A stretch of 64,000 nt of DNA, from assembly GCA_037445205.1 (NCBI GenBank), contig JBBIKX010000001.1, positions 8,767 through 72,766 on the forward strand. The letters are read 5' to 3'. Origin of the DNA: Candidatus Wildermuthbacteria bacterium (GTDB taxonomy: Bacteria > Patescibacteriota > Minisyncoccia > Minisyncoccales > PEYH01). The translations under genes and the position numbers were made by a program. The notes beneath the pieces are model-generated. The model was not told the origin of the DNA. It worked only from the letters and a program-made list of their open reading frames with translations, and did no database searches. This document shows positions 6,526-58,536 of the stretch, piece by piece (positions within the stretch are counted from its first letter, which is position 1; the number at the start of each line of letters is the position of its first letter).

Positions 6526-7352
6526 TAGGGTTTGGCAAAAAAAACATAAGCAGAGGGAAAAAGCTAAAAAGGATTGATCTTTCGGGATTATCTAAAAAGA
6601 AACCCCAAAAAAGCTTGATTTTTTCTTTGAAAAAAAAGTCGGGCAGAAATTTTCAGGGAAGGATTACAGTAAGGCATCGGGGCGGAGGATCAAAAAAATT
6701 TTATCGCATGATTGATTTTTCCCAGAAGAAAATGAACATTGCGGGAAAGGTAGCGGCCATTGAATATGATCCAAACAGGACGGCTTTTATTGCCTTGATA
6801 GAGTACCAAGACAAAACCAAGGGATATATTTTGGCTCCTCAAAAGCTGAAAGAGGGCGATGAGATAATAGTGTCTGAATCAGCGCCTATAAATCCCGCCA
6901 ACAGAATGAAGCTGAAAAATATACCCGTTGGAACAGAAGTCCATAACATTGAATTGCAGCCCTTTGGCGGGGGAAAAATTGTTCGCTCCGCGGGCAGCTC
7001 TGCAACTGTTTTGGCGCAGGAAGGAGGATATGCTCACCTTTTATTGCCCTCAAAAGAAATAAGGAAAATTCATAGCGAATGTTTTGCAAGCATCGGAGCG
7101 CTTTCTCATCAGGAGCATAGATTTATCCGCATTCCCAAAGCAGGCACGATGCGTCTTAAAGGCAGAAGGCCGCAGGTCAGGGGCACTGCGATGAATCCGG
7201 TTGATCATCCCCATGGCGGCGGAGAAGGAAGAACAGGAATTGGCATGCCCCATCCAAAAACTCCTTGGGGAAAGCCGGCCTTGGGAGTAAAAACAAGAAA
7301 GAGAAAACATACCAACCAGTTTATCCTTCAGAGAAGGTCAAAGAAAAAATAA
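6522..7352 (+). CDS. rplB: 50S ribosomal protein L2
   Basis: Contains GTAMNPVDHPHGGGEGR. Confidence 0.97.
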   Translation: MIGFGKKNISRGKKLKRIDLSGLSKKKPQKSLIFSLKKKSGRNFQGRITVRHRGGGSKKFYRMIDFSQKKMNIAGKVAAIEYDPNRTAFIALIEYQDKTKGYILAPQKLKEGDEIIVSESAPINPANRMKLKNIPVGTEVHNIELQPFGGGKIVRSAGSSATVLAQEGGYAHLLLPSKEIRKIHSECFASIGALSHQEHRFIRIPKAGTMRLKGRRPQVRGTAMNPVDHPHGGGEGRTGIGMPHPKTPWGKPALGVKTRKRKHTNQFILQRRSKKK

Positions 7353-15656: not shown

Positions 15657-16405
15657 GAGAAATTCCCGTTAAAACCAAAGAAGAAATAGAAATTATGGCC
15701 AGGGCCGGAAAAATCCTGGCTTTAATTTTAGATTCTTTAAAAAAAGAGATTCGAGCCGGCATAAAAACAAAAGATTTAGACTTAAAGGCCCGTCAATTAA
15801 TTAATTTTTACAAAGCGAAGCCAGCTTTTCTGGGATACGATAATTTTCCGGCTGTTTTATGCGTTTCCGTGAACGACATAATCGTCCACGGAGTGCCCTC
15901 TGATCATCAATTAAAAACAGGGGATATTATAAGCCTGGATCTTGGAATAAAATATGGCGGTTTTTATGTTGATATGGCGGTTACGATGCCGGTTGGAAAA
16001 GTTGATTCCGAGGCCTTAAGATTGATAAAAACCACAAAAAAAGCGCTCAAAAGAGCAATCAAAAAAGTCAGGCCCGGGAACACTTTTGGCGATGTCAGCA
16101 ACACTATTCAAAGATATATTGAGAAGCGGGGATTTTTTGTGATAAAAGATCTGTGCGGGCATGGCATCGGGAAAAAGCTTCACGAACCGCCGGAAATTTT
16201 AAATTATGGCAAAAGAAAAACAGGTCCTTTGTTGCGCGAAGGAATGGTTTTTTGTATAGAGCCAATGGCTTCAATCAGCGCTGAAAAAACAAAAAAATCC
16301 GATGATATCTGCGGATACAAAACGATTGATGGATCTCTGTCCGCCCATTTTGAACATACAGTGGCAGTGACAAAAAATGGGGCAAGGATTCTCACTAAAA
16401 TTTGA
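15653..16405 (+). CDS. map: Methionine aminopeptidase type I
   Basis: 250 aa with HGVP, GHGIG and FCIEP motifs; follows adk. Confidence 0.94.
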   Translation: MREIPVKTKEEIEIMARAGKILALILDSLKKEIRAGIKTKDLDLKARQLINFYKAKPAFLGYDNFPAVLCVSVNDIIVHGVPSDHQLKTGDIISLDLGIKYGGFYVDMAVTMPVGKVDSEALRLIKTTKKALKRAIKKVRPGNTFGDVSNTIQRYIEKRGFFVIKDLCGHGIGKKLHEPPEILNYGKRKTGPLLREGMVFCIEPMASISAEKTKKSDDICGYKTIDGSLSAHFEHTVAVTKNGARILTKI

Positions 16406-16430
16406 CGATTGGATCATATTATATTACTAT
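16402..16430 (+). promoter_or_regulatory. Candidate promoter of cassette A
   Basis: TTGACG(16402-16407, overlapping the map stop), 17-nt spacer, TACTAT(16425-16430). The predicted +1 falls at TCCC (16437). Confidence 0.4.
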
Positions 16431-16461
16431 AAAGAATCCCAAAAAAGATAAGGAGGTAGTG

Positions 16462-16839
16462 ATGAGAAGGATAACGCTTTTAGTAGGACTAGTTCCGCTT
16501 TCGCTCTGCACGGTTTTGGCGAGTCATTTCCTTGAGCTGCGCGGTTTCCATTACGAGCAAGCCGCTGTCTTATTTCTTCCTTTCTTAATATGGCTGACCT
16601 TATTGCGGCTTGTGGAAGGGTCAAGGGCTTGGATAGCTTGGATCGGATTTGGAACCGCCAGCGCATTGGGCGGTTTCGTTGTTTTTTCGGTGGTTCTGCA
16701 TCATCTTGCAGAGTGGAAAATAGGCCTTTGTCTCATCATGTTAGTTGCCTACTGTTTTGCCTGTGGGTTCGTTGGCCTGCTTGGTTACGATATCTGGAAG
16801 CTACAGCGCCACAATCGCGACAAGAAGAAAAAATCGTAA
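16462..16839 (+). CDS. Small integral membrane protein, about 4 TM helices, 125 aa, no recognised family
   Basis: AAGGAGGT at 16450-16457 lies 4 nt before the ATG at 16462. The ORF-track start at 16402 is an upstream in-frame extension. Sequence is hydrophobic (LLVGLVPLSLCTVLA..., GGFVVFSVVLHHL...) with GC-rich codons. Confidence 0.7.
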   Translation: MRRITLLVGLVPLSLCTVLASHFLELRGFHYEQAAVLFLPFLIWLTLLRLVEGSRAWIAWIGFGTASALGGFVVFSVVLHHLAEWKIGLCLIMLVAYCFACGFVGLLGYDIWKLQRHNRDKKKKS

Positions 16840-40589: not shown

Positions 40590-41588
40590 GTGTCTTGCGA
40601 TACAGCCGTTATCGTGAATGTGCAGGCGGGCGCGGGAATGACTCGCTGGAAGTTGGCGCATCTTATGCGCCAGTTAAACCGCATTCTTTCTGTGCCCAAG
40701 AGTTGTGTCTGGCTGACTCGGGAAACCGGCGAGAGCAGCGCCACATCCCTGGCATCTTTTGCCCAAAGCAGAGGGGCCAAAGCAGTGATTGTCTTTGGCG
40801 GAGACGGCACGGTTCATCAGGCAGTAAACGGCCTGAAACTGCCCGATCCTTCAATCTCTGTTGGCATTGTGCCCTGCGGTACGGCCAACGTGGTTGCTTC
40901 CTGCCTTGGAATGCCAAGAAATGTCAAAGCGGCGCTGGAAGTCATAAGGGCCGGAATGACAAGAAAGATCGATCTGGGAATCCTGGAGGGAGATGGCCTT
41001 CCAAGATACGCGGTTTCCACGCTAAGCGTGGGACTTGACGCGATGATAAACGAACTGGCGCATCGTGTTAAGCCCCTGTTTCGGAAATACCATCTGCCAT
41101 CCATCTTGGGCTACATTCCGCCTCTTCTTAGATACACTCTTAATGAAGTTCCGCTCTACGATGTAGCTGTCAAAAAGGATGGATTGGTTTTTTGCGAAAG
41201 GATATCCTTTCTGGCAGTAACAAACACTCCATGGTATGGAGGCGGATTGGTGGACAGAACTGCCAAGCTTGACGACGGGCTGTTTAACATGATATGCGCC
41301 AGAAAGATCAGGTCCCGCGATCTTCCCTGGTGGATGTTTCAGATGTGGCAGGGAAATCACATCTATTATCCCAAGGTTTTTCTGCCCTGCTCTTCGTTTT
41401 CAGGATTAAGCATAAGTTCTGACTTTCCCTTGCCCGCGCAGATTGACGGACAGATTCTGCCCGCCCGGAAGAACATCGCAATCTCTGTCGTTCCCCGCCT
41501 CCTGCAGGTTTTCGCACCTTTGCCCCAACCAGAAAGAACAAAGCATTCTGGTTGGGGTTGTTTTTTTGATATGTCCAGGTTCAGATAG
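40590..41588 (+). CDS. Diacylglycerol-kinase catalytic-domain (YegS/BmrU-type) lipid kinase
   Basis: GTG start 5 nt after GGAGGTG(40578-40584). Contains VIVFGGDGTVHQAVNGL and VGIVPCGTANVVASCLG, hallmarks of the DAGK_cat family. Confidence 0.8.
   Translation: MSCDTAVIVNVQAGAGMTRWKLAHLMRQLNRILSVPKSCVWLTRETGESSATSLASFAQSRGAKAVIVFGGDGTVHQAVNGLKLPDPSISVGIVPCGTANVVASCLGMPRNVKAALEVIRAGMTRKIDLGILEGDGLPRYAVSTLSVGLDAMINELAHRVKPLFRKYHLPSILGYIPPLLRYTLNEVPLYDVAVKKDGLVFCERISFLAVTNTPWYGGGLVDRTAKLDDGLFNMICARKIRSRDLPWWMFQMWQGNHIYYPKVFLPCSSFSGLSISSDFPLPAQIDGQILPARKNIAISVVPRLLQVFAPLPQPERTKHSGWGCFFDMSRFR
41523..41567 (+). terminator. Strong rho-independent terminator lying inside the last codons of the kinase ORF
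   Basis: Perfect 12-bp stem: CCCCAACCAGAA(41523-41534) pairs with TTCTGGTTGGGG(41546-41557), followed by TTGTTTTTTT. Confidence 0.7.
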
Positions 41589-41591
41589 ATA

Positions 41592-41620
41592 TTGACCAAA
41601 ATATTCTTTTATGATATAAT
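41592..41620 (+). promoter_or_regulatory. Near-consensus sigma70 promoter of cassette B2
   Basis: TTGACC(41592-41597), 17-nt spacer, TATAAT(41615-41620). Confidence 0.6.
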
Positions 41621-41647
41621 TTGGATATCCTAAGGAGGTGATGCGTG

Positions 41648-41815
41648 ATGAAGGCGGGTATAGTGATTTTCCGGCATACACAAGTAGAAACGCTGCAGGC
41701 GACGGTTAACGCGTTTCTCAAGGTTCACGCTCCACATATGGAGAACCTTGAGCATCAGCTGGTAGTGACTCCAGACGGCACTATCGTCTTGACCCTGCTT
41801 TATCGGGCTAAGTAG
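41648..41815 (+). CDS. 55-aa soluble protein, unknown family
   Basis: Not in the ORF track (below 60 aa). AAGGAGGTG(41632-41640) lies 7 nt before the ATG. Translates to MKAGIVIFRHTQVETLQATVNAFLKVHAPHMENLEHQLVVTPDGTIVLTLLYRAK-stop. Confidence 0.6.
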   Translation: MKAGIVIFRHTQVETLQATVNAFLKVHAPHMENLEHQLVVTPDGTIVLTLLYRAK

Positions 41816-41837
41816 GGTTCGTAAGGAGGGAGGAACG

Positions 41838-42101
41838 ATGCGTAAGCTCTTTGCGGCGATTGTCGGACTCTACCGTCGGCTCTGGATGATTGAGCCCCGC
41901 CGTTTCAAACGGGGACAAATCATCCAGTTCGAAGACTGGCGCGATGGCATTAGAGTTGCCAAAGCCAGATACCTGGTTCTCGGCAATACACCCTCCGAGA
42001 AGAGGTACGTCCTGGAGGGTGTTGGGCCCGGCAACAAGGGGAGGCGCGAGCGCCTTCGCTTCCGCTGGGTTGACAAACACGCACATTTGGTGCGCGGCTG
42101 A
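41838..42101 (+). CDS. 87-aa basic protein, unknown family
   Basis: AAGGAGG(41823-41829) lies 8 nt before the ATG. The ORF is in the track and is followed by a terminator. Confidence 0.6.
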   Translation: MRKLFAAIVGLYRRLWMIEPRRFKRGQIIQFEDWRDGIRVAKARYLVLGNTPSEKRYVLEGVGPGNKGRRERLRFRWVDKHAHLVRG

Positions 42102-42111
42102 AATGCCTGTT

Positions 42112-42155
42112 CCGCCCGGGACTAAGGAGGAGTTCCGGGCGGTTGTTGTTTTTTG
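42112..42155 (+). terminator. Terminator of cassette B2
   Basis: CCGCCCGG(42112-42119) pairs with CCGGGCGG(42135-42142), followed by TTGTTGTTTTTT. Confidence 0.65.
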
Positions 42156-42204
42156 ATGAAGTTTCTGGTATCGTATCAAGTATCGCACATTGGGAGGTGG
42201 AACG

Positions 42205-42348
42205 GTGCACAAATGGGTAATCTTTGCGGTAGTGGTGATCCCAAGCATTCTCATCGGTTCCCTTATCTGCCTTTTCCAAGGAAAGGGCAGAAGAGTGTGG
42301 TCCTTCGCTAAGGGGAGAGTCTTTGCTTGGGCGGAAACGGATTGGTGA
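42205..42348 (+). CDS. 47-aa single-pass membrane peptide
   Basis: GGAGGT(42194-42199) lies about 5 nt before the GTG at 42205. Translates to (M)HKWVIFAVVVIPSILIGSLICLFQGKGRRVWSFAKGRVFAWAETDW-stop. Not in the ORF track (below 60 aa). Confidence 0.5.
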   Translation: MHKWVIFAVVVIPSILIGSLICLFQGKGRRVWSFAKGRVFAWAETDW

Positions 42349-42371
42349 ACACAATCCTCTTGGCACTTGTT

Positions 42372-42405
42372 AACCGGCGCATCTTCTGATGGGCCGGTTC
42401 ATCTT
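42372..42405 (+). terminator. Hairpin at the right edge of island B
   Basis: AACCGGC(42372-42378) pairs with GCCGGTT(42393-42399), followed by CATCTTTT. The T tract is weak. Confidence 0.4.
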
Positions 42406-42472
42406 TTAACAAAAAATGCTCCATTTTTTGATTTGATTTTTGTTTGTTTTTGAATTAGAATTAATATATAAA

Positions 42473-53540: not shown

Positions 53541-55024
53541 TAAATTCATCAAAAAAATATATTCCCGTCATCGGGCTTGAAATACATACGGAATTAAAAA
53601 CTAATTCCAAAATGTTTTGCGGGTGCAAAAACGATTCGCAGGAAAAAGAAGCGAATTTGAATATTTGTCCTGTTTGCATGGGTCATCCCGGCACTCTCCC
53701 CGTTATAAACAAAACAGCGATTCGTTTTGTCATAAAAACAGGGATTGCTCTGAATTGTAAAATTACAAAAGAGTCGCGATTTGAAAGAAAAAATTATTTT
53801 TATCCCGATCTTCCAAAAGGATATCAGATTTCTCAATACAAAGAGCCGTTTTGTTTTAATGGCTTTTTAAAAATAAATAATAAAAAAATAAGAATTAGAA
53901 GGGTTCATTTGGAAGAAGATACTGCCCGCCTGATACACTCCAAAAATGGATATTCGCTGATTGATTTCAACCGCGCCGGCATTCCTTTAATGGAGCTTGT
54001 AACGGAGCCGGACATAGAATCTTCTAAAGAGGCATCAGACTTCGCAAAAAAACTTCAGTTGATCCTGAGATATTTAAATGTTTCCAGCGCTGACATGGAA
54101 AAAGGGCAATTGAGAGTGGAGGCAAATATTTCATTAATAAACGCAAATTTTAAAGCAAAAAACGCAAAACTAGGAACAAAGGTGGAGATCAAAAATTTAA
54201 ATTCGTTTAGGGCAGTTGAGAGGGCGATAGAATATGAAATAGAAAGGCAAAAGGAGTTACTATTAAATGATGAGAGGGTGGCGCAGGAAACAAGAGGATG
54301 GGATCCTCAATCAGAAAGAACCTTTCCCCAGAGAGAAAAAGAAGAGGCGCATGATTACCGCTACTTTCCAGAGCCGGATTTGCCCCAGATTTATATAAAA
54401 AAAGACTATCTGGAGGCGATAAAAAAAGGAATTCCCGAACTTCCCGATCAAAAAATAAAAAGATTAAAAGAAGAATTTTTTGTTAACGAACAATCAGCCC
54501 AGATTCTTGTCTCTAACAGAGATTTAAGCGAGTATTTTGAAAAATCGGCAAGCGAGCTTTTAAGATGGTCAAAAGACAAAAGATTAGATCAAAAGAGCCA
54601 AAAAGAATTGATACAGAGCGCCGCCAACTATCTTTTGACAGATTTACTCGGCTGTCTTTCAGGGAAAGAATTTTCAGAAAAAGATTTTCCCATAACGCCT
54701 GAAAATTTCGGAGAGTTTATCGCTCTTGTCCGCGATAAAAAATTCACAAGCAAAATGGCAAAAATTCTTTTAGGAGAGATGTTTGATTCCGGCCAAGATC
54801 CCTCAACCATAATAAAAAAAAGAGGATTAATCCAGACGGACAACGAAGATGAGATTAAAAAAATAGTGCAAAAAATAATTTCATCAAATCCTCGGGCATT
54901 TGAAGATTATAAAAAAGGAAAAGAAAATGCTCTTCAATTCATGATTGGACAAATGATGAAAGAAACTAAAGGCACTATAAATCCCCAGATGGCAAAGAAA
55001 GCGTTGATTGATTTTTTAAAATAA
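53537..55024 (+). CDS. gatB: Glu/Asp-tRNA amidotransferase subunit B
   Basis: Contains IGLEIHTELKT, VCMGHPGTLPVINK and RVEANISL. Confidence 0.95.
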   Translation: MINSSKKYIPVIGLEIHTELKTNSKMFCGCKNDSQEKEANLNICPVCMGHPGTLPVINKTAIRFVIKTGIALNCKITKESRFERKNYFYPDLPKGYQISQYKEPFCFNGFLKINNKKIRIRRVHLEEDTARLIHSKNGYSLIDFNRAGIPLMELVTEPDIESSKEASDFAKKLQLILRYLNVSSADMEKGQLRVEANISLINANFKAKNAKLGTKVEIKNLNSFRAVERAIEYEIERQKELLLNDERVAQETRGWDPQSERTFPQREKEEAHDYRYFPEPDLPQIYIKKDYLEAIKKGIPELPDQKIKRLKEEFFVNEQSAQILVSNRDLSEYFEKSASELLRWSKDKRLDQKSQKELIQSAANYLLTDLLGCLSGKEFSEKDFPITPENFGEFIALVRDKKFTSKMAKILLGEMFDSGQDPSTIIKKRGLIQTDNEDEIKKIVQKIISSNPRAFEDYKKGKENALQFMIGQMMKETKGTINPQMAKKALIDFLK

Positions 55025-55032
55025 TATATAAT
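55004..55032 (+). promoter_or_regulatory. Near-consensus promoter of cassette C
   Basis: TTGATT(55004-55009, inside the last gatB codons), 17-nt spacer, TATAAT(55027-55032). Confidence 0.55.
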
Positions 55033-55135
55033 ACTTAAAATCCAGAATAAGGAGGTGGTCGCCGGGATACAGTCCAAAGAGGGCGAGGGGCGTTTTCGGA
55101 AGCAAAACCGGATCTTTCTTGCGAAAGGAGCATCG

Positions 55136-55333
55136 ATGCCAGCAGTAAATCTTGTTAACGTGGCGAGGTCATTGCCGGACGAAGAGGCGGAGAGGCTTTT
55201 GCTCATCGAGCAAAGCAATCCTGATTGCCTCAGGGCGCTTTTTGCGGTCGTTCTGAGCGCCGGAACGCTGGAAAAAGCTGTTCCTCTGATCCAACGAGTT
55301 CTTGCTGGCGCACCCTTGTTTCCGGGCGGATGA
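55136..55333 (+). CDS. 65-aa helical protein, unknown family (a 92-aa form from the GTG at 55055 is possible)
   Basis: AAAGGAG(55124-55130) lies 5 nt before the ATG at 55136. The same frame is open from 55055, but that GTG sits inside an SD (AAGGAGGTG 55049-55057). Confidence 0.5.
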   Translation: MPAVNLVNVARSLPDEEAERLLLIEQSNPDCLRALFAVVLSAGTLEKAVPLIQRVLAGAPLFPGG

Positions 55334-56341
55334 AACTGGATGGGGCTCCCTTCGGGAGCCCCCTTGTTTTGTTAAAAAAGTATTTATTATTTTTCTGGCT
55401 TTTTTTTTATCCCCAACCCAATTTACTCTTTTGTCTTTTTTAAACCAGGTTATTTGTCTTTTGGCGTAACTTTCAATTGCTTTTTGGAGCATTCCGACCA
55501 TTTCATCATAGCCAATTTTTTTTTGAAGATAGCAAGCAATATATCTGTATTCCAATCCAAATTCTTCAAGCCGTTTCCAGGAAACGCCGTCTTTTCTTAG
55601 CGCTCTGACCTCTTTTATCATCCCCTGATTTAATCTTTTGTATAGCCGTTTTCTGATTAAATTTTTTAGCTCTTTTTTTTCTTTCTTGATGCCGATAATG
55701 AGCAAATCAAACAATTGGCTTTTTTTTATGACGGGTACCGGTTTTTTTGATTTCAAAACTATTTCAATTGCCCGGATTAATCTGCGGGGATTTTTTTTAT
55801 CAATAATTTTTGCCCGCCGCGGGTCCAGTTTTTTTAACATTTGATAAAGCTGGTTTGGCAATTTTTTTTCCAGTTTTTTCCTTAATTTCCAGTCCGGCGG
55901 AATTTTTGGGATGACGATTCCGTCAACGACTGATTGAATATAGAATCCGGTGCCGCCGCAAAGAATGGGCAGCTTATTTCTCTTATGGATTTCCCTTATT
56001 TTTTTTAATGCCATTTTTTGATACTGGGCGACCGTAAATTTCCTTTTTGGAGAAGCAACATCCAAAAGATGATGTTGGATGCCTCTATAAAGATATGACT
56101 GTTTTGAAATTTGAGATTTAGGACTTGGAGTTTGTTTAGAAATTAGAAATTTGGAATTAGAAATTTTATCTCGTGGAACCTTCCCGGTTCCGATATCCAT
56201 TTTGCGATAAACCTGACGGGAATCGGCCGAAATCACCTCTCCGTTAAAATTTTTTGCCAGTGCTACCGCCAAATCGCTTTTTCCCGAAGCAGTGGGTCCA
56301 AGAATAACTAACAATATTTTTCGGTCCGTTTTTTTTGACAT
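55169..56341 (-). CDS. miaA: tRNA dimethylallyltransferase MiaA. The conserved core is 55364-56341; the ORF then runs 64 further codons antisense into cassette C.
   Basis: P-loop LGPTASGKS, plus DSRQVY, GGTGFY and AKRQITWF. The homologous end (KIINTFLTKQ) coincides with the composition boundary at about 55364. Confidence 0.88.
   Translation of the reverse strand: MSKKTDRKILLVILGPTASGKSDLAVALAKNFNGEVISADSRQVYRKMDIGTGKVPRDKISNSKFLISKQTPSPKSQISKQSYLYRGIQHHLLDVASPKRKFTVAQYQKMALKKIREIHKRNKLPILCGGTGFYIQSVVDGIVIPKIPPDWKLRKKLEKKLPNQLYQMLKKLDPRRAKIIDKKNPRRLIRAIEIVLKSKKPVPVIKKSQLFDLLIIGIKKEKKELKNLIRKRLYKRLNQGMIKEVRALRKDGVSWKRLEEFGLEYRYIACYLQKKIGYDEMVGMLQKAIESYAKRQITWFKKDKRVNWVGDKKKARKIINTFLTKQGGSRREPHPVSSARKQGCASKNSLDQRNSFFQRSGAQNDRKKRPEAIRIALLDEQKPLRLFVRQ
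55342..55372 (+). terminator. Terminator of cassette C
   Basis: GGGGCTCCC(55342-55350) pairs with GGGAGCCCC(55354-55362), followed by CTTGTTTTGTT. Confidence 0.7.
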
Positions 56342-56363
56342 AATCCCAAGAATATTATATCAT
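56335..56363 (+). promoter_or_regulatory. Candidate promoter of cassette D
   Basis: TTGACA(56335-56340, overlapping the miaA start codon on the other strand), 17-nt spacer, TATCAT(56358-56363). The predicted +1 falls at TCCC (56370). Confidence 0.4.
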
Positions 56364-56389
56364 TATAAATCCCAAAAAGGAGGTGGTTA

Positions 56390-56683
56390 ATGTCGTATTA
56401 TTTAGCAATAATGTTTATGTTGCTAAGCGCAGGCTTTGCAAGTGCGGGGTTTAGGGTGATCCGTTATGCCCTTCGAGGAAAGCTGACAGGCACTATGCTT
56501 GATAGAGGCATGATACTCGGTACTGTCATCGTGCTTGTTGGAGTGGGGCTCGCCACGATTCCCATCATCTTCCAGAGCGGGATAAGATGGTGGTGTCTTG
56601 CGCTGGCGCTTGTGGAGGCAGTGGTCTGTATTGGGCTCTGGATGCTGCATGTCTTCTCGTCTGCGTCAATGGATTCACCCTAA
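56390..56683 (+). CDS. 97-aa integral membrane protein, about 3 TM helices, unknown family
   Basis: GGAGGTG(56379-56385) lies 4 nt before the ATG. Hydrophobic segments: YYLAIMFMLLSAGFASAGF, ILGTVIVLVGVGLATIPIIF, WWCLALALVEAVVCIGLWML. Confidence 0.7.
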   Translation: MSYYLAIMFMLLSAGFASAGFRVIRYALRGKLTGTMLDRGMILGTVIVLVGVGLATIPIIFQSGIRWWCLALALVEAVVCIGLWMLHVFSSASMDSP

Positions 56684-56695
56684 GGCGTGGATTGC

Positions 56696-56728
56696 GAGGG
56701 CTCTCTTGTGCGGGGGCCCTCCTTTTTT
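56696..56728 (+). terminator. Terminator of cassette D, abutting the miaB stop codon
   Basis: GAGGGCTCTC(56696-56705) pairs with GGGGGCCCTC(56712-56721) using G-U pairs, followed by CTTTTTT. Confidence 0.6.
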
Positions 56729-58061
56729 ATTCCATCAATTTTCCTCTCAGTCCGTATGGACCAATGTTTATTATTTTGGCTTTAACAAAATTTCCTAAAA
56801 TATTTTTATCTGATTTCAATCTAATGGTTTGATAATGCCTTGTTTTTCCGACATAAAAATCATTTTTTTTGGTGAGTATCAAAACTTCCGCGGTTTTTTT
56901 AAAAAACTTCTTGTTAAAATTTAAAATGGTTTTTTTTAATACTTTGAATAATTCTTTTTCTCTTGTTTTTTTCTTAAAGTTGGGGACATCGTCGTTTAAA
57001 TGAAGGGCGGCTGTTTGAGGCCTTTTAGAATAAGCCGCAATATATCCAAACGCAAATCCGATTTTTTCAAAATTATTTTTTGTATTTTCAAATTGTTTTT
57101 TGGTCTCGCCGGGAAATCCTACAATTACATCAGAAGATACAGCCACTTCTTTTTCGATGCCGCATCTGTATTTTTTAAAATTATTTCTTATTTTTTTAAT
57201 AAGCGCTTTATATTGAGATACAGTGTAGGGCCTATTCATTTTTTTAAGGATTTCATTGTCTCCTGATTGAATTGGAAGATTAATATAGGGCGTTACTTTA
57301 TGGCATTTTGCCATTGTTTTAATTAGTTCGTCGCTTAAATCTTTTGGATGAGAAGAGGTAAATCTTATCCAAAAATTCCCCTCAATATCATTTATCATTT
57401 TAAGAAGCGTTGGAAAATTTATTTCTTTTTCTTTTTTCACTTTAAGGTTTGTGTTTTGGATTTTACCATTATAGGAATTGACATTCTGTCCCAACAGCCA
57501 TACTTCTTTTGCTCCGCTTAAAACGGCCTTTTTTATTTCACAAATAATATCTTGGGCCGGCCTTGAGATTTCTTTTCCTCTTACATAAGGTACGACGCAA
57601 TAACTGCAGAAATTATTGCACCCGGTCATTATCGGAATATAGGCAACAACAGGGGATTGATATTTAGGCATTAATTCAAAATAGTGTTTTTTTTTGAATT
57701 CAACCGACCTAATTTTAAAACCAAGCTTTTTTAATATCTCGGGCAATTTGGGAAGCTCATTTATGTCAAAGATTTCATCGCAGAATTTATTAAGTTCTTT
57801 TTTGTCTTTTTCTAAGATACATCCCGTTAAAATAATTTTATATTTTATATTTTTATTTTCATATTTGAGCCTTATCTTTTTAATTCGAGCGCTTGCTCGA
57901 TCTATCGCCGACTGTCTGACTGAACAGATATTAAACACTATCAAATCCACCCCATCGCATTTATTGGCATGATTAAATCCTGATTTTTCCAAAACGCCTG
58001 CGATTCTTTCGGAGTCAGATTTATTCATTTGGCACCCAAAAGTGATAATATGATATTTCAT
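56727..58061 (-). CDS. miaB: MiaB/RimO-family radical-SAM methylthiotransferase
   Basis: Contains ITFGCQMNKSDSE, GCNNFCSYCVVP and a C-terminal TRAM-like domain. Confidence 0.88.
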   Translation of the reverse strand: MKYHIITFGCQMNKSDSERIAGVLEKSGFNHANKCDGVDLIVFNICSVRQSAIDRASARIKKIRLKYENKNIKYKIILTGCILEKDKKELNKFCDEIFDINELPKLPEILKKLGFKIRSVEFKKKHYFELMPKYQSPVVAYIPIMTGCNNFCSYCVVPYVRGKEISRPAQDIICEIKKAVLSGAKEVWLLGQNVNSYNGKIQNTNLKVKKEKEINFPTLLKMINDIEGNFWIRFTSSHPKDLSDELIKTMAKCHKVTPYINLPIQSGDNEILKKMNRPYTVSQYKALIKKIRNNFKKYRCGIEKEVAVSSDVIVGFPGETKKQFENTKNNFEKIGFAFGYIAAYSKRPQTAALHLNDDVPNFKKKTREKELFKVLKKTILNFNKKFFKKTAEVLILTKKNDFYVGKTRHYQTIRLKSDKNILGNFVKAKIINIGPYGLRGKLME

Positions 58062-58092
58062 ATCTTTTCTTTAAGATAAACGCTAAAGAATA

Positions 58093-58536
58093 TTATTCTC
58101 CGATTATTTGAATCTGGATATTTCTTTTTTTAGGATAAGCGAGTTCTATGAAAAGAATGCTCTGCCATAAGCCGAGCTGCAGCTTTCCTTCAATTATATT
58201 TAGGCAGACGCTTGTTGGTATATGCAATGCTCTGCAATGAGAGTGGGCGTTCGGTTTCTCATCCGGACACATATTTACGGTTCTTATTTCAAAATTATTG
58301 TGATTATACGCTTTATTTTTCGGAGAACAATGCTCTAAGTGTTCTTTAATGTCCTGTAAAAGCAACGGTTCGTTTTCATTTACAAAAACAGAGGCGGTTG
58401 TGTGAAGAGACTGAATATTAATAATTCCGTTTTTTACCGCAGTTTTTTTGGTTATTTCTTTAATCCTTTCCGTGATATCGATAATTTGAAGTTCTTCGAC
58501 GGTATCAATAGAGATAATCGAATTTTTGATAATCAT
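58093..58536 (-). CDS. YjbQ/UPF0047 family protein (secondary thiamine-phosphate synthase-like)
   Basis: Contains QSLHTTASVFVNENE, NAHSHCRA and GLWQSILFIE. Confidence 0.75.
   Translation of the reverse strand: MIIKNSIISIDTVEELQIIDITERIKEITKKTAVKNGIINIQSLHTTASVFVNENEPLLLQDIKEHLEHCSPKNKAYNHNNFEIRTVNMCPDEKPNAHSHCRALHIPTSVCLNIIEGKLQLGLWQSILFIELAYPKKRNIQIQIIGE

Follow-up and report, generated by a model that had tools for sequence, protein, structure and literature searches.

Old loss of the miaA stop codon as the probable origin of a 64-codon antisense tail in a Candidatus Wildermuthbacteria genome

How does a conserved tRNA-modification enzyme come to end in 64 codons read from the back of another gene? 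The question is raised by miaA, which encodes a tRNA dimethylallyltransferase on the minus strand of a Candidatus Wildermuthbacteria contig (JBBIKX010000001.1, of which the 64,000 nucleotides (nt) analysed here are called the window). Its open reading frame (ORF) does not stop at the end of the conserved enzyme and continues antisense through the predicted terminator and most of the coding sequence of a small convergent gene located in a GC-rich cassette between miaA and gatB. A sequence-only reading of this DNA attributed the missing stop to a recent insertion of foreign DNA. Comparison with related loci leads to a different answer, in which an old stop-codon loss is the likely event that fused miaA to a shadow frame of the small gene, with a disordered and basic tail being tolerated by the enzyme.

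A full-length domain, the P-loop and the orthologous context place the protein in the IPPT family (PF01715). The Pfam match scores 215.6 bits against a cut-off of 23.6 and covers the complete profile (1-243/243) over residues 43-303, the P-loop GPTASGKS (residues 15-22) fits GxxxxGK[ST] and is invariant in the orthologue alignment, and the miaB-miaA-gatB synteny of the window is common to dozens of related loci. The last confident helix comprises residues 312-325, and the AlphaFold model obtained with 29 homologues keeps a predicted local distance difference test score (pLDDT) of 80-97 up to about residue 327. Orthologue homology stops at ...INTFLTKQ, and no in-frame stop is present at its Gln codon (55364-55366). 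The minus-strand codons across the junction, ACT TTT TTA ACA AAA CAA GGG GGC TCC CGA AGG GAG CCC, read T F L T K Q G G S R R E P, and the +1 frame has a TAA at 55372-55374.

The position of the ancestral stop was located by alignment to MiaA orthologues, a check that the sequence-only reading had proposed. A search for MiaA homologues found 8000, and a metagenome scan with the MiaA core led to 80 related loci. Wherever the 3' end is complete, in 70+ loci, the MiaA stop falls between -4 and +4 codons relative to window residue 326, or in a few cases at +8 to +13; only the window (+64) and a locus designated L001 (+62) are extended. Since the orthologue ends cluster at residue 326, the ancestral stop would have stood directly after ...FL(K)(K), which is where the end of homology had been placed before. 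As in a stop-codon shift, the orthologue ends are conserved in position and lie upstream of the new stop, and a MiaA with 93% identity to that of the window (P0002) has 317 amino acids (aa) and a normal end.

Beyond the junction, the miaA frame passes through the terminator hairpin (55342-55362), which it reads as GSRREPH, and then runs antisense to 55 codon triplets of the 65-codon plus-strand ORF, the tail and the small gene using identical triplets (55169-55136 = 33). Several statements of the sequence-only reading are borne out here: the 64 extra codons are the antisense of the neighbouring GC-rich small gene and not MiaA sequence, the convergent ORFs overlap by 165 nt, and the junction lies at the T-run of a terminator and at a composition boundary, where the hairpin, the T-rich tract and the boundary in GC content (~50% over 55031-55410 vs 38.7% for the window) were all found. 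No family match for the tail was obtained in Pfam, NCBIfam or PHROGs. The pLDDT of residues 328-390 is below 50, with tail values of 26-44, and the tail is predicted to be a basic, disordered appendage. Being fused in frame to a presumably translated miaA, it is probably expressed as protein.

The age of this arrangement can be judged from L001, a contig (Logan SRR8371833) from a study unrelated to that of the window, which encodes a MiaA (P0003) of 369 aa with 65% identity to the window protein overall and 72% over the core. Its gene order is that of the window, namely gatB, a small plus-strand ORF and convergent miaA, and its junction, ATT TTT TTA AAA AAA GGG, likewise contains no in-frame stop and has a TAA in the equal +1 frame. 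The P0003 tail (GGSKRNPFHPVSEVGKQRRARNNLLNQ...) is clearly homologous to that of the window (GGSRREPHPVSSARKQGCASKNSLDQ..., annotated at NCBI with the tail included, P0001), because the gene on the opposite strand is conserved, and it is the only other homologous long tail in the metagenome loci compared. Nucleotide identity between the window and L001 is 0.63-0.78 in the cassette vs 0.58-0.86 in gatB and miaA, and L001 together with a further locus, L086, is the nearest outgroup in both gene cores to the pair formed by the window and its close strain L002. The cassette has thus diverged as much as the flanking housekeeping genes, which argues that the arrangement is old, and by this measure the stop-less junction would predate ~25-30% nucleotide divergence. 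The view of the event as recent and unrepaired is contradicted by this shared junction and tail and by a cassette divergence equal to that of the flanks; the sequence-only reading had itself set a homologous ~60-aa extension in orthologous MiaA proteins against its claim, and P0003 carries such an extension of 62 aa.

The close strain, 93-96% identical to the window and represented by GCA_964383555.1 (L002) and a Logan contig (L003), shows how the cassette and the stop can be separated. Identity to the window is 94-100% on both sides of a patch covering the ends of both genes and the small gene (Table 1) vs 36-77% inside it. The small-gene allele of L002 is a 61-aa ORF at the equal position, only 27% identical to that of the window and called in public annotation, and the miaA stop is in frame and abuts the hairpin (CAA AAA AAG TAA GGGGG). 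Because L002 carries a homologous cassette at the same site together with a normal TAA, the presence of the cassette alone does not remove the stop, and the proposal that its insertion did so does not hold. Judged by the identity profile, the difference between the window and L002 is an allelic replacement by recombination rather than a de novo insertion.

The two overlapping frames differ in how they have changed. Between the window and L001, codon differences are 14 synonymous and 29 nonsynonymous in the plus-strand ORF and 3 and 40 in the tail frame. The Nei-Gojobori omega (nonsynonymous to synonymous rate ratio) is 0.43 for the plus-strand ORF and 1.29 for the tail frame, while most other frames give about 0.9-1.1 and the antisense frame that shares third positions with the sense gene gives 0.49. 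When the substitutions were randomly re-placed, the ratio of nonsynonymous to synonymous differences (pN/pS) of the plus-strand ORF was 0.54 vs an expected 0.84 (P=0.04), and that of the tail frame was 1.21 vs an expected 0.66 (P=0.006), a nonsynonymous excess. Such a high ratio in the tail frame is the pattern produced by selection on the opposite strand, and purifying selection in both overlapping frames, the test for a functional antiparallel pair, was not found. The ORF is also kept in L001 with 65 codons, equal start and stop, no indels over 198 nt and 55-56% aa identity, unlike its leader, which has indels between loci, and the protein is folded into four helices by single-sequence AlphaFold (pLDDT 81). 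The small gene is taken as real on account of its omega, ribosome-binding site (RBS), terminator, indel-free length and confident fold; the comparison gives moderately strong support to a small gene that is real and selected and to a MiaA tail that is its passive complement.

Based on these results, the following course of events is proposed. The ancestral miaA stop would have been situated just past the ...FL(K)K with which the last helix ends, where miaA adjoins the terminator belonging to a GC-rich convergent small gene in a variable spacer. In the ancestor of the window and L001 lineage, this stop would have been lost once, probably by a one-base change in the T/A run of the junction, after which the miaA frame would read through the hairpin and on through the small gene, its codons lying exactly antisense to those of that gene. 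For the tail frame to meet a stop, the sense gene needs a TTA, CTA or TCA codon, and the small gene has none of them from codon 13 to its end, so that the frame stays open for 64 codons until the complement of Ser12 TCA. The selected coding sequence would be the small gene, and the tail, approximately neutral, would be its passive complement tolerated on an intact enzyme. In L001 the tail ends at the complement of Leu13 TTA, and the adjacent Ser14 TCA also complements to a stop.

How unusual such an open frame is was estimated by simulation. The overlapped part of the small gene has 11 codons, all Leu, that could turn synonymously into TTA, CTA or TCA, and 0/11 end in A. The probability that the frame stays open for at least 53 codons with the protein kept is 0.02 under genome codon usage and 0.11 under the usage of comparable GC-rich small genes; the open antisense frame is unusual, not extraordinary. 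Four-fold codons ending in A are 4/22 in the window and 1/19 in L001. Selection to keep the tail open through avoidance of A-ending Leu and Ser codons was considered and rejected, as the avoidance is not significant given the low overall frequency of A at third positions (A3).

Three observations weigh against an old, vertically inherited and passive tail. The closest sampled relative of L001, L086 (78% MiaA identity), has no cassette, a 17-nt spacer and a MiaA ending in ...INTFLKNL followed by a stop, so that under vertical inheritance the cassette must have been lost in L086; alternatively, the module may have been exchanged horizontally as a whole. The selection tests rest on one informative pair, the window and L001, and the P=0.04 for the plus-strand ORF is marginal. 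Several single-base changes that restore a stop (e.g. AAA or CAA to TAA) would be harmless to the small gene, and none has been fixed in either lineage despite ~25% divergence; the tail could therefore be not merely neutral.

Table 1. Positions of the features at the miaA 3' end and its convergent neighbour, in window coordinates
Feature	Coordinates	Strand	Remarks
Allelic replacement patch relative to L002	54870..55450		~580 bp; last ~50 gatB codons, small gene, last ~25 miaA codons
Promoter-like site	55004..55032	+	TTGATT-17-TATAAT, 10/12 consensus match only; straddles gatB stop (55022-55024)
5' leader	55040..55135	+	starts with extended Shine-Dalgarno-like AGGAGGTGGT (55050-55059)
Small gene	55136..55333	+	65 aa; predicted four-helix protein; RBS AAGGAG 55125-55130, 5 nt upstream
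Intrinsic terminator hairpin (predicted)	55342..55362	+	GGGGCTCCC-TTC-GGGAGCCCC then CTTGTTTTGTT; 9 bp, 8 G-C
miaA ORF	55169..56341	-	390 aa including tail (ORF list)
MiaA tail	55169..55363	-	64 codons (55172-55363) plus TGA 55169-55171; shadow ORF in the triplet register of the small gene
Junction without ancestral stop	55364..55381	-	ACT TTT TTA ACA AAA CAA; doubles as U-tract of the convergent terminator
miaA conserved core	55364..56341	-	326 codons; tRNA dimethylallyltransferase; Pfam IPPT E=1e-63

The persistence of the open frame in two lineages, when single-base changes would restore a stop, also raises the alternative that the overlap is functional, either through selection of the basic tail (e.g. 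for extra RNA binding) or through coupled expression of miaA and the small gene by a ~200-bp sense/antisense duplex, by non-stop miaA transcripts ending at the hairpin, or by slippage on the U-run that yields two MiaA isoforms. The miaA mRNA must complement nearly the whole small-gene mRNA to reach a stop, and an in-register U UUU UUA precedes a stable hairpin by 10 nt in the window and by 7 nt in L001. However, the tail frame shows its nonsynonymous excess rather than purifying selection, and disorder is predicted for the tail. The -1 frame has neither a nearby stop nor a conserved product, the close TAA being one of the +1 frame, the scarcity of A-ending Leu and Ser codons is explained by low A3, and both L002 and L086 manage without the tail. 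A functional overlap is thus unlikely. The related speculation, that the stop-less junction is maintained because U UUU UUA, the hairpin and the antisense overlap serve as a regulatory device (isoforms, non-stop transcripts or coupling), or that the tail is an incipient RNA-binding appendage arising by overprinting on a tRNA-modifying enzyme of an ultra-small bacterium, is slightly more doubtful than that. A -1 programmed frameshift site was considered as a candidate and rejected: the heptamer and hairpin are present in both loci (L001 5940-5965; window 55364-55381), but the -1 frame has no stop and no conservation.

The sequence-only proposal that a foreign cassette was recently inserted at the miaA 3' end, deleted the stop and left an unrepaired chimeric tail draws on the sharp GC boundary at the junction, on the closest strain, L002, which differs from the window precisely at the cassette, and on the absence of the cassette from L086 and most relatives. 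Against these stand L001, with genes 25-30% diverged, which shares the junction, the homologous tail and an equally diverged cassette, and L002, in which a homologous cassette coexists with an intact miaA stop. The cassettes of the window and L001 are ~70-75% identical, and an independent recent receipt would need near-identity. Moreover, no mobile hallmarks, extra copies, or phage, plasmid or viral matches were found, and a recent insertion is very unlikely.

A sequencing artefact would dispose of the tail altogether, if the homopolymer run were one base too long and the true MiaA end were the +1-frame TAA. Removing one T from the T6 run (55373-55378, AAAAAA on the plus strand) gives ACT TTT TAA, and the T7 run of L001 behaves likewise; the resulting end, ...IINTF and a stop, is orthologue-like, as L021 and L030 end in ...KKF and ...NVF followed by stops. 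Short-read assemblies, however, rarely miscall homopolymers of 6-7 bases. The Logan assembly L085 (SRR11582151) is identical to the window at 7172/7173 nt across the locus, although it may share reads with the metagenome-assembled genome (MAG), so that its independence is incomplete, and L001, ~25% diverged and from another study, shows the same stop-less frame. These assembly comparisons leave a small residual doubt, and an artefact is highly improbable. Equally improbable is a structured non-coding RNA gene with two fortuitous ORFs, a reading suggested by a GC-rich element of ~330 nt with a conserved 5' segment and a minimum free energy (MFE) z-score of -2.2, since structured RNAs stand out as GC-rich in AT-rich genomes, but opposed by an Rfam search yielding only noise at E<=10, a leader without convincing structure or covariation, a z-score that includes the terminator, and a plus-strand ORF that keeps its length, start, stop and RBS over 30% divergence with an omega of 0.43 and a confident fold.

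The old stop-codon loss proposed here combines two known phenomena, a stop-codon shift and a shadow frame. C-terminal extension by shift or loss of the stop codon has been documented in bacteria, with 13 bacterial cases (Vakhrusheva, Kazanov, Mironov & Bazykin 2011, J Mol Evol 72:138, as cited in PMC4494051). The miaA case resembles them in that a conserved enzyme without its ancestral stop recruits downstream DNA, orthologues mark the old end, and the extension has no homologues beyond the immediate lineage. It differs in that the recruited DNA is a terminator and the antisense of a functional gene instead of a 3' untranslated region, in its length of 64 codons, and in its persistence over ~25-30% divergence. 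Shadow ORFs, which are long frames left open on the strand opposite a GC-rich gene and in equal triplet register, are known from gene finding, and the tail shares with them the complementary triplets, the occurrence of stops only opposite TTA, CTA or TCA and selection on the sense gene only. Shadow ORFs are normally untranslated annotation artefacts, whereas the miaA tail is fused in frame to a real gene.

Overprinted antiparallel genes offer a further parallel, since two opposite-strand ORFs share 165 nt here, but both frames are constrained where overprinted genes are functional, and the tail frame is not. In -1 frameshift signals, as in dnaX or HIV-1 gag-pol, a slippery X XXY YYZ is followed by a spacer of 5-9 nt and a stem-loop. 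The window and L001 both have a comparable arrangement of U UUU UUA in the miaA frame, a 7-10-nt spacer and a G+C hairpin; unlike those signals, they have no -1 stop or product, and termination of the convergent gene accounts for the hairpin.

The locus also has a bearing on annotation. Public annotation has accepted the long MiaA with its tail, at 381 aa in the NCBI product and 390 aa in that of Logan. Public protein sets lack the small gene, evidently owing to masking by the extended miaA ORF, whereas in L002, beside the normal miaA stop, it is called. An accepted long miaA thus hides a conserved small gene, and an enzyme with a housekeeping role can retain 64 nonsense residues at its end over deep divergence. 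Current understanding is left unchanged, and interest in the locus would rise only if the tail or the overlap were functional.

The sequence of the small protein includes LLLIEQSNPDCLR, ALFAVVLSAGTLEK and AVPLIQR. Neither the ORF nor its alleles matched a family in Pfam (E<=1), NCBIfam or PHROGs, and Foldseek comparison of the model with the PDB gave nothing significant. A phmmer search retrieved 36 long TPR_10/TPR_12 proteins through summed repeat matches (best E=7.5e-16), with no Pfam TPR match; identity to single TPR repeats is 35-37%, and the similarity is not reproduced by the L001 homologue. The protein may thus weakly resemble TPR_10-type helical hairpins, a resemblance that does not amount to family membership. 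A protein-word search of a 5.8-billion-protein collection, made with the alignment of the small ORFs, retrieved no homologue and missed the window ORF as well. The tail, searched in the same way, returned no candidates either, though P0001 contains it, which makes this negative uninformative; an exact-sequence look-up gave no record of P0001. The sole match among genome contigs, inside a TonB-dependent receptor of a Flammeovirgaceae MAG, was rejected as chance.

The surrounding signals are partly conserved. The window, L001 and L002 share the leader motifs GGAGGTGGT, CAGT and GGCGAGG without variation, the -10 region of the promoter-like site is conserved in all three, and both L001 and L002 have a counterpart of the hairpin and T-run. 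The hairpin is followed by the T-rich tract CTTGTTTTGT on the plus strand and by ATCCAGTTTCATCC, a poor U-tract, on the minus strand, so that the combination of G+C hairpin and U-rich tract that characterizes an intrinsic terminator is predicted on the plus strand. No convincing consensus structure, covariation or Rfam match was found for the leader, and a search of 54900-56850 against Rfam 15 gave nothing at the gathering threshold, with the best permissive matches at E ~1-8. The MFE z-score cited above was obtained for the whole element, terminator hairpin included.

Mobility of the cassette was assessed from its distribution and its ends. Among 85 loci, the window-type cassette is confined to the window, to L085 (its twin assembly) and to L001, always at the orthologous site, and the window holds no second copy. 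The run accessions of L003 (SRR11582140) and L085 (SRR11582151) are near each other, which hints at a common study. The leader DNA pattern had no match in JGI metagenomes, and neither the ORF pattern in viral contigs nor blastn against phages and plasmids gave a match. The search for terminal inverted repeats or a target-site duplication found only AT-rich imperfect repeats around the element, at 55018-55039 and 55372-55393 (17/22), on both composition boundaries of the cassette; they are probably due to chance, given that gatB and miaA share ...FLK-type codons at their ends (TTTTTAAAA). The repeats, additional copies and other contexts or replicons expected of a mobile cassette, whether a miniature inverted-repeat transposable element, an insertion sequence or integron-type, are thus missing. 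In the sequence-only reading this DNA was foreign and the junction an insertion junction; with no phage, plasmid or viral match, second copy or convincing terminal repeats, a foreign origin is unproven, and the data point to a cassette that is lineage-specific and recombining.

The spacer in which the cassette sits is variable throughout the clade. The order of miaB, miaA and convergent gatB is conserved, and the miaA/gatB spacer ranges from -55 to 1937 nt (loci L005-L084). ORFs in this spacer are unrelated between lineages; L005, for instance, has a Cys-rich one of 53 aa, and L023 and L058 encode small membrane proteins that are homologous. The spacer is a variable position at which recombination exchanges the small genes of individual lineages. 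In L086 (960-1010) it keeps TATATTAT after the gatB stop and continues with GGAAGTGCC, with a faint likeness to the sequence that opens the terminator region of L001 (GGAAGGGGTTCC); this could be the deletion scar of a former cassette, the match being too short to judge.

Variation is also seen within miaA and miaB. MiaA residues ~58-84 (window ~56090-56170, minus strand) form a low-complexity insertion, ISNSKFLISKQTPSPKSQISKQS, that is variable or absent in orthologues and predicted to be disordered. Among the close homologues, P0065 and P0066 are MiaA-MiaB fusions (IPPT plus radical SAM) of 654 and 667 aa, consistent with the tight miaB-miaA adjacency in the clade. In miaB, 56845-56994 and 57395-58094 have low identity to L002, at 52-88% per 50 columns (most bins 62-84%) vs 96-100% elsewhere, and these patches suggest frequent mosaic recombination between co-occurring strains.

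Further GC-rich segments occur in the window. A second cassette (~52% GC) lies between miaA and miaB on the plus strand (56365-56730) and has the identical extended Shine-Dalgarno AGGAGGTGGT (56378-56387), a 97-aa ORF (56390-56683) with the look of a three-helix membrane protein and a terminator hairpin at 56696-56721; the ORF had no family match. This cassette is 89.6% identical in L002/L003 vs 96-98% in the flanks, and L001, with 5 nt between miaB and miaA, lacks it. Other GC-rich islands are found at 16402-16839 and 40590-42420, with 49-54% GC in the 38.7% GC window, and are probably the other cassettes of the sequence-only reading. Near-perfect extended Shine-Dalgarno motifs precede them at 16451 and 41633, and their ORFs comprise a membrane-like one of 145 aa in one island and one of 332 aa plus further open frames in the other.

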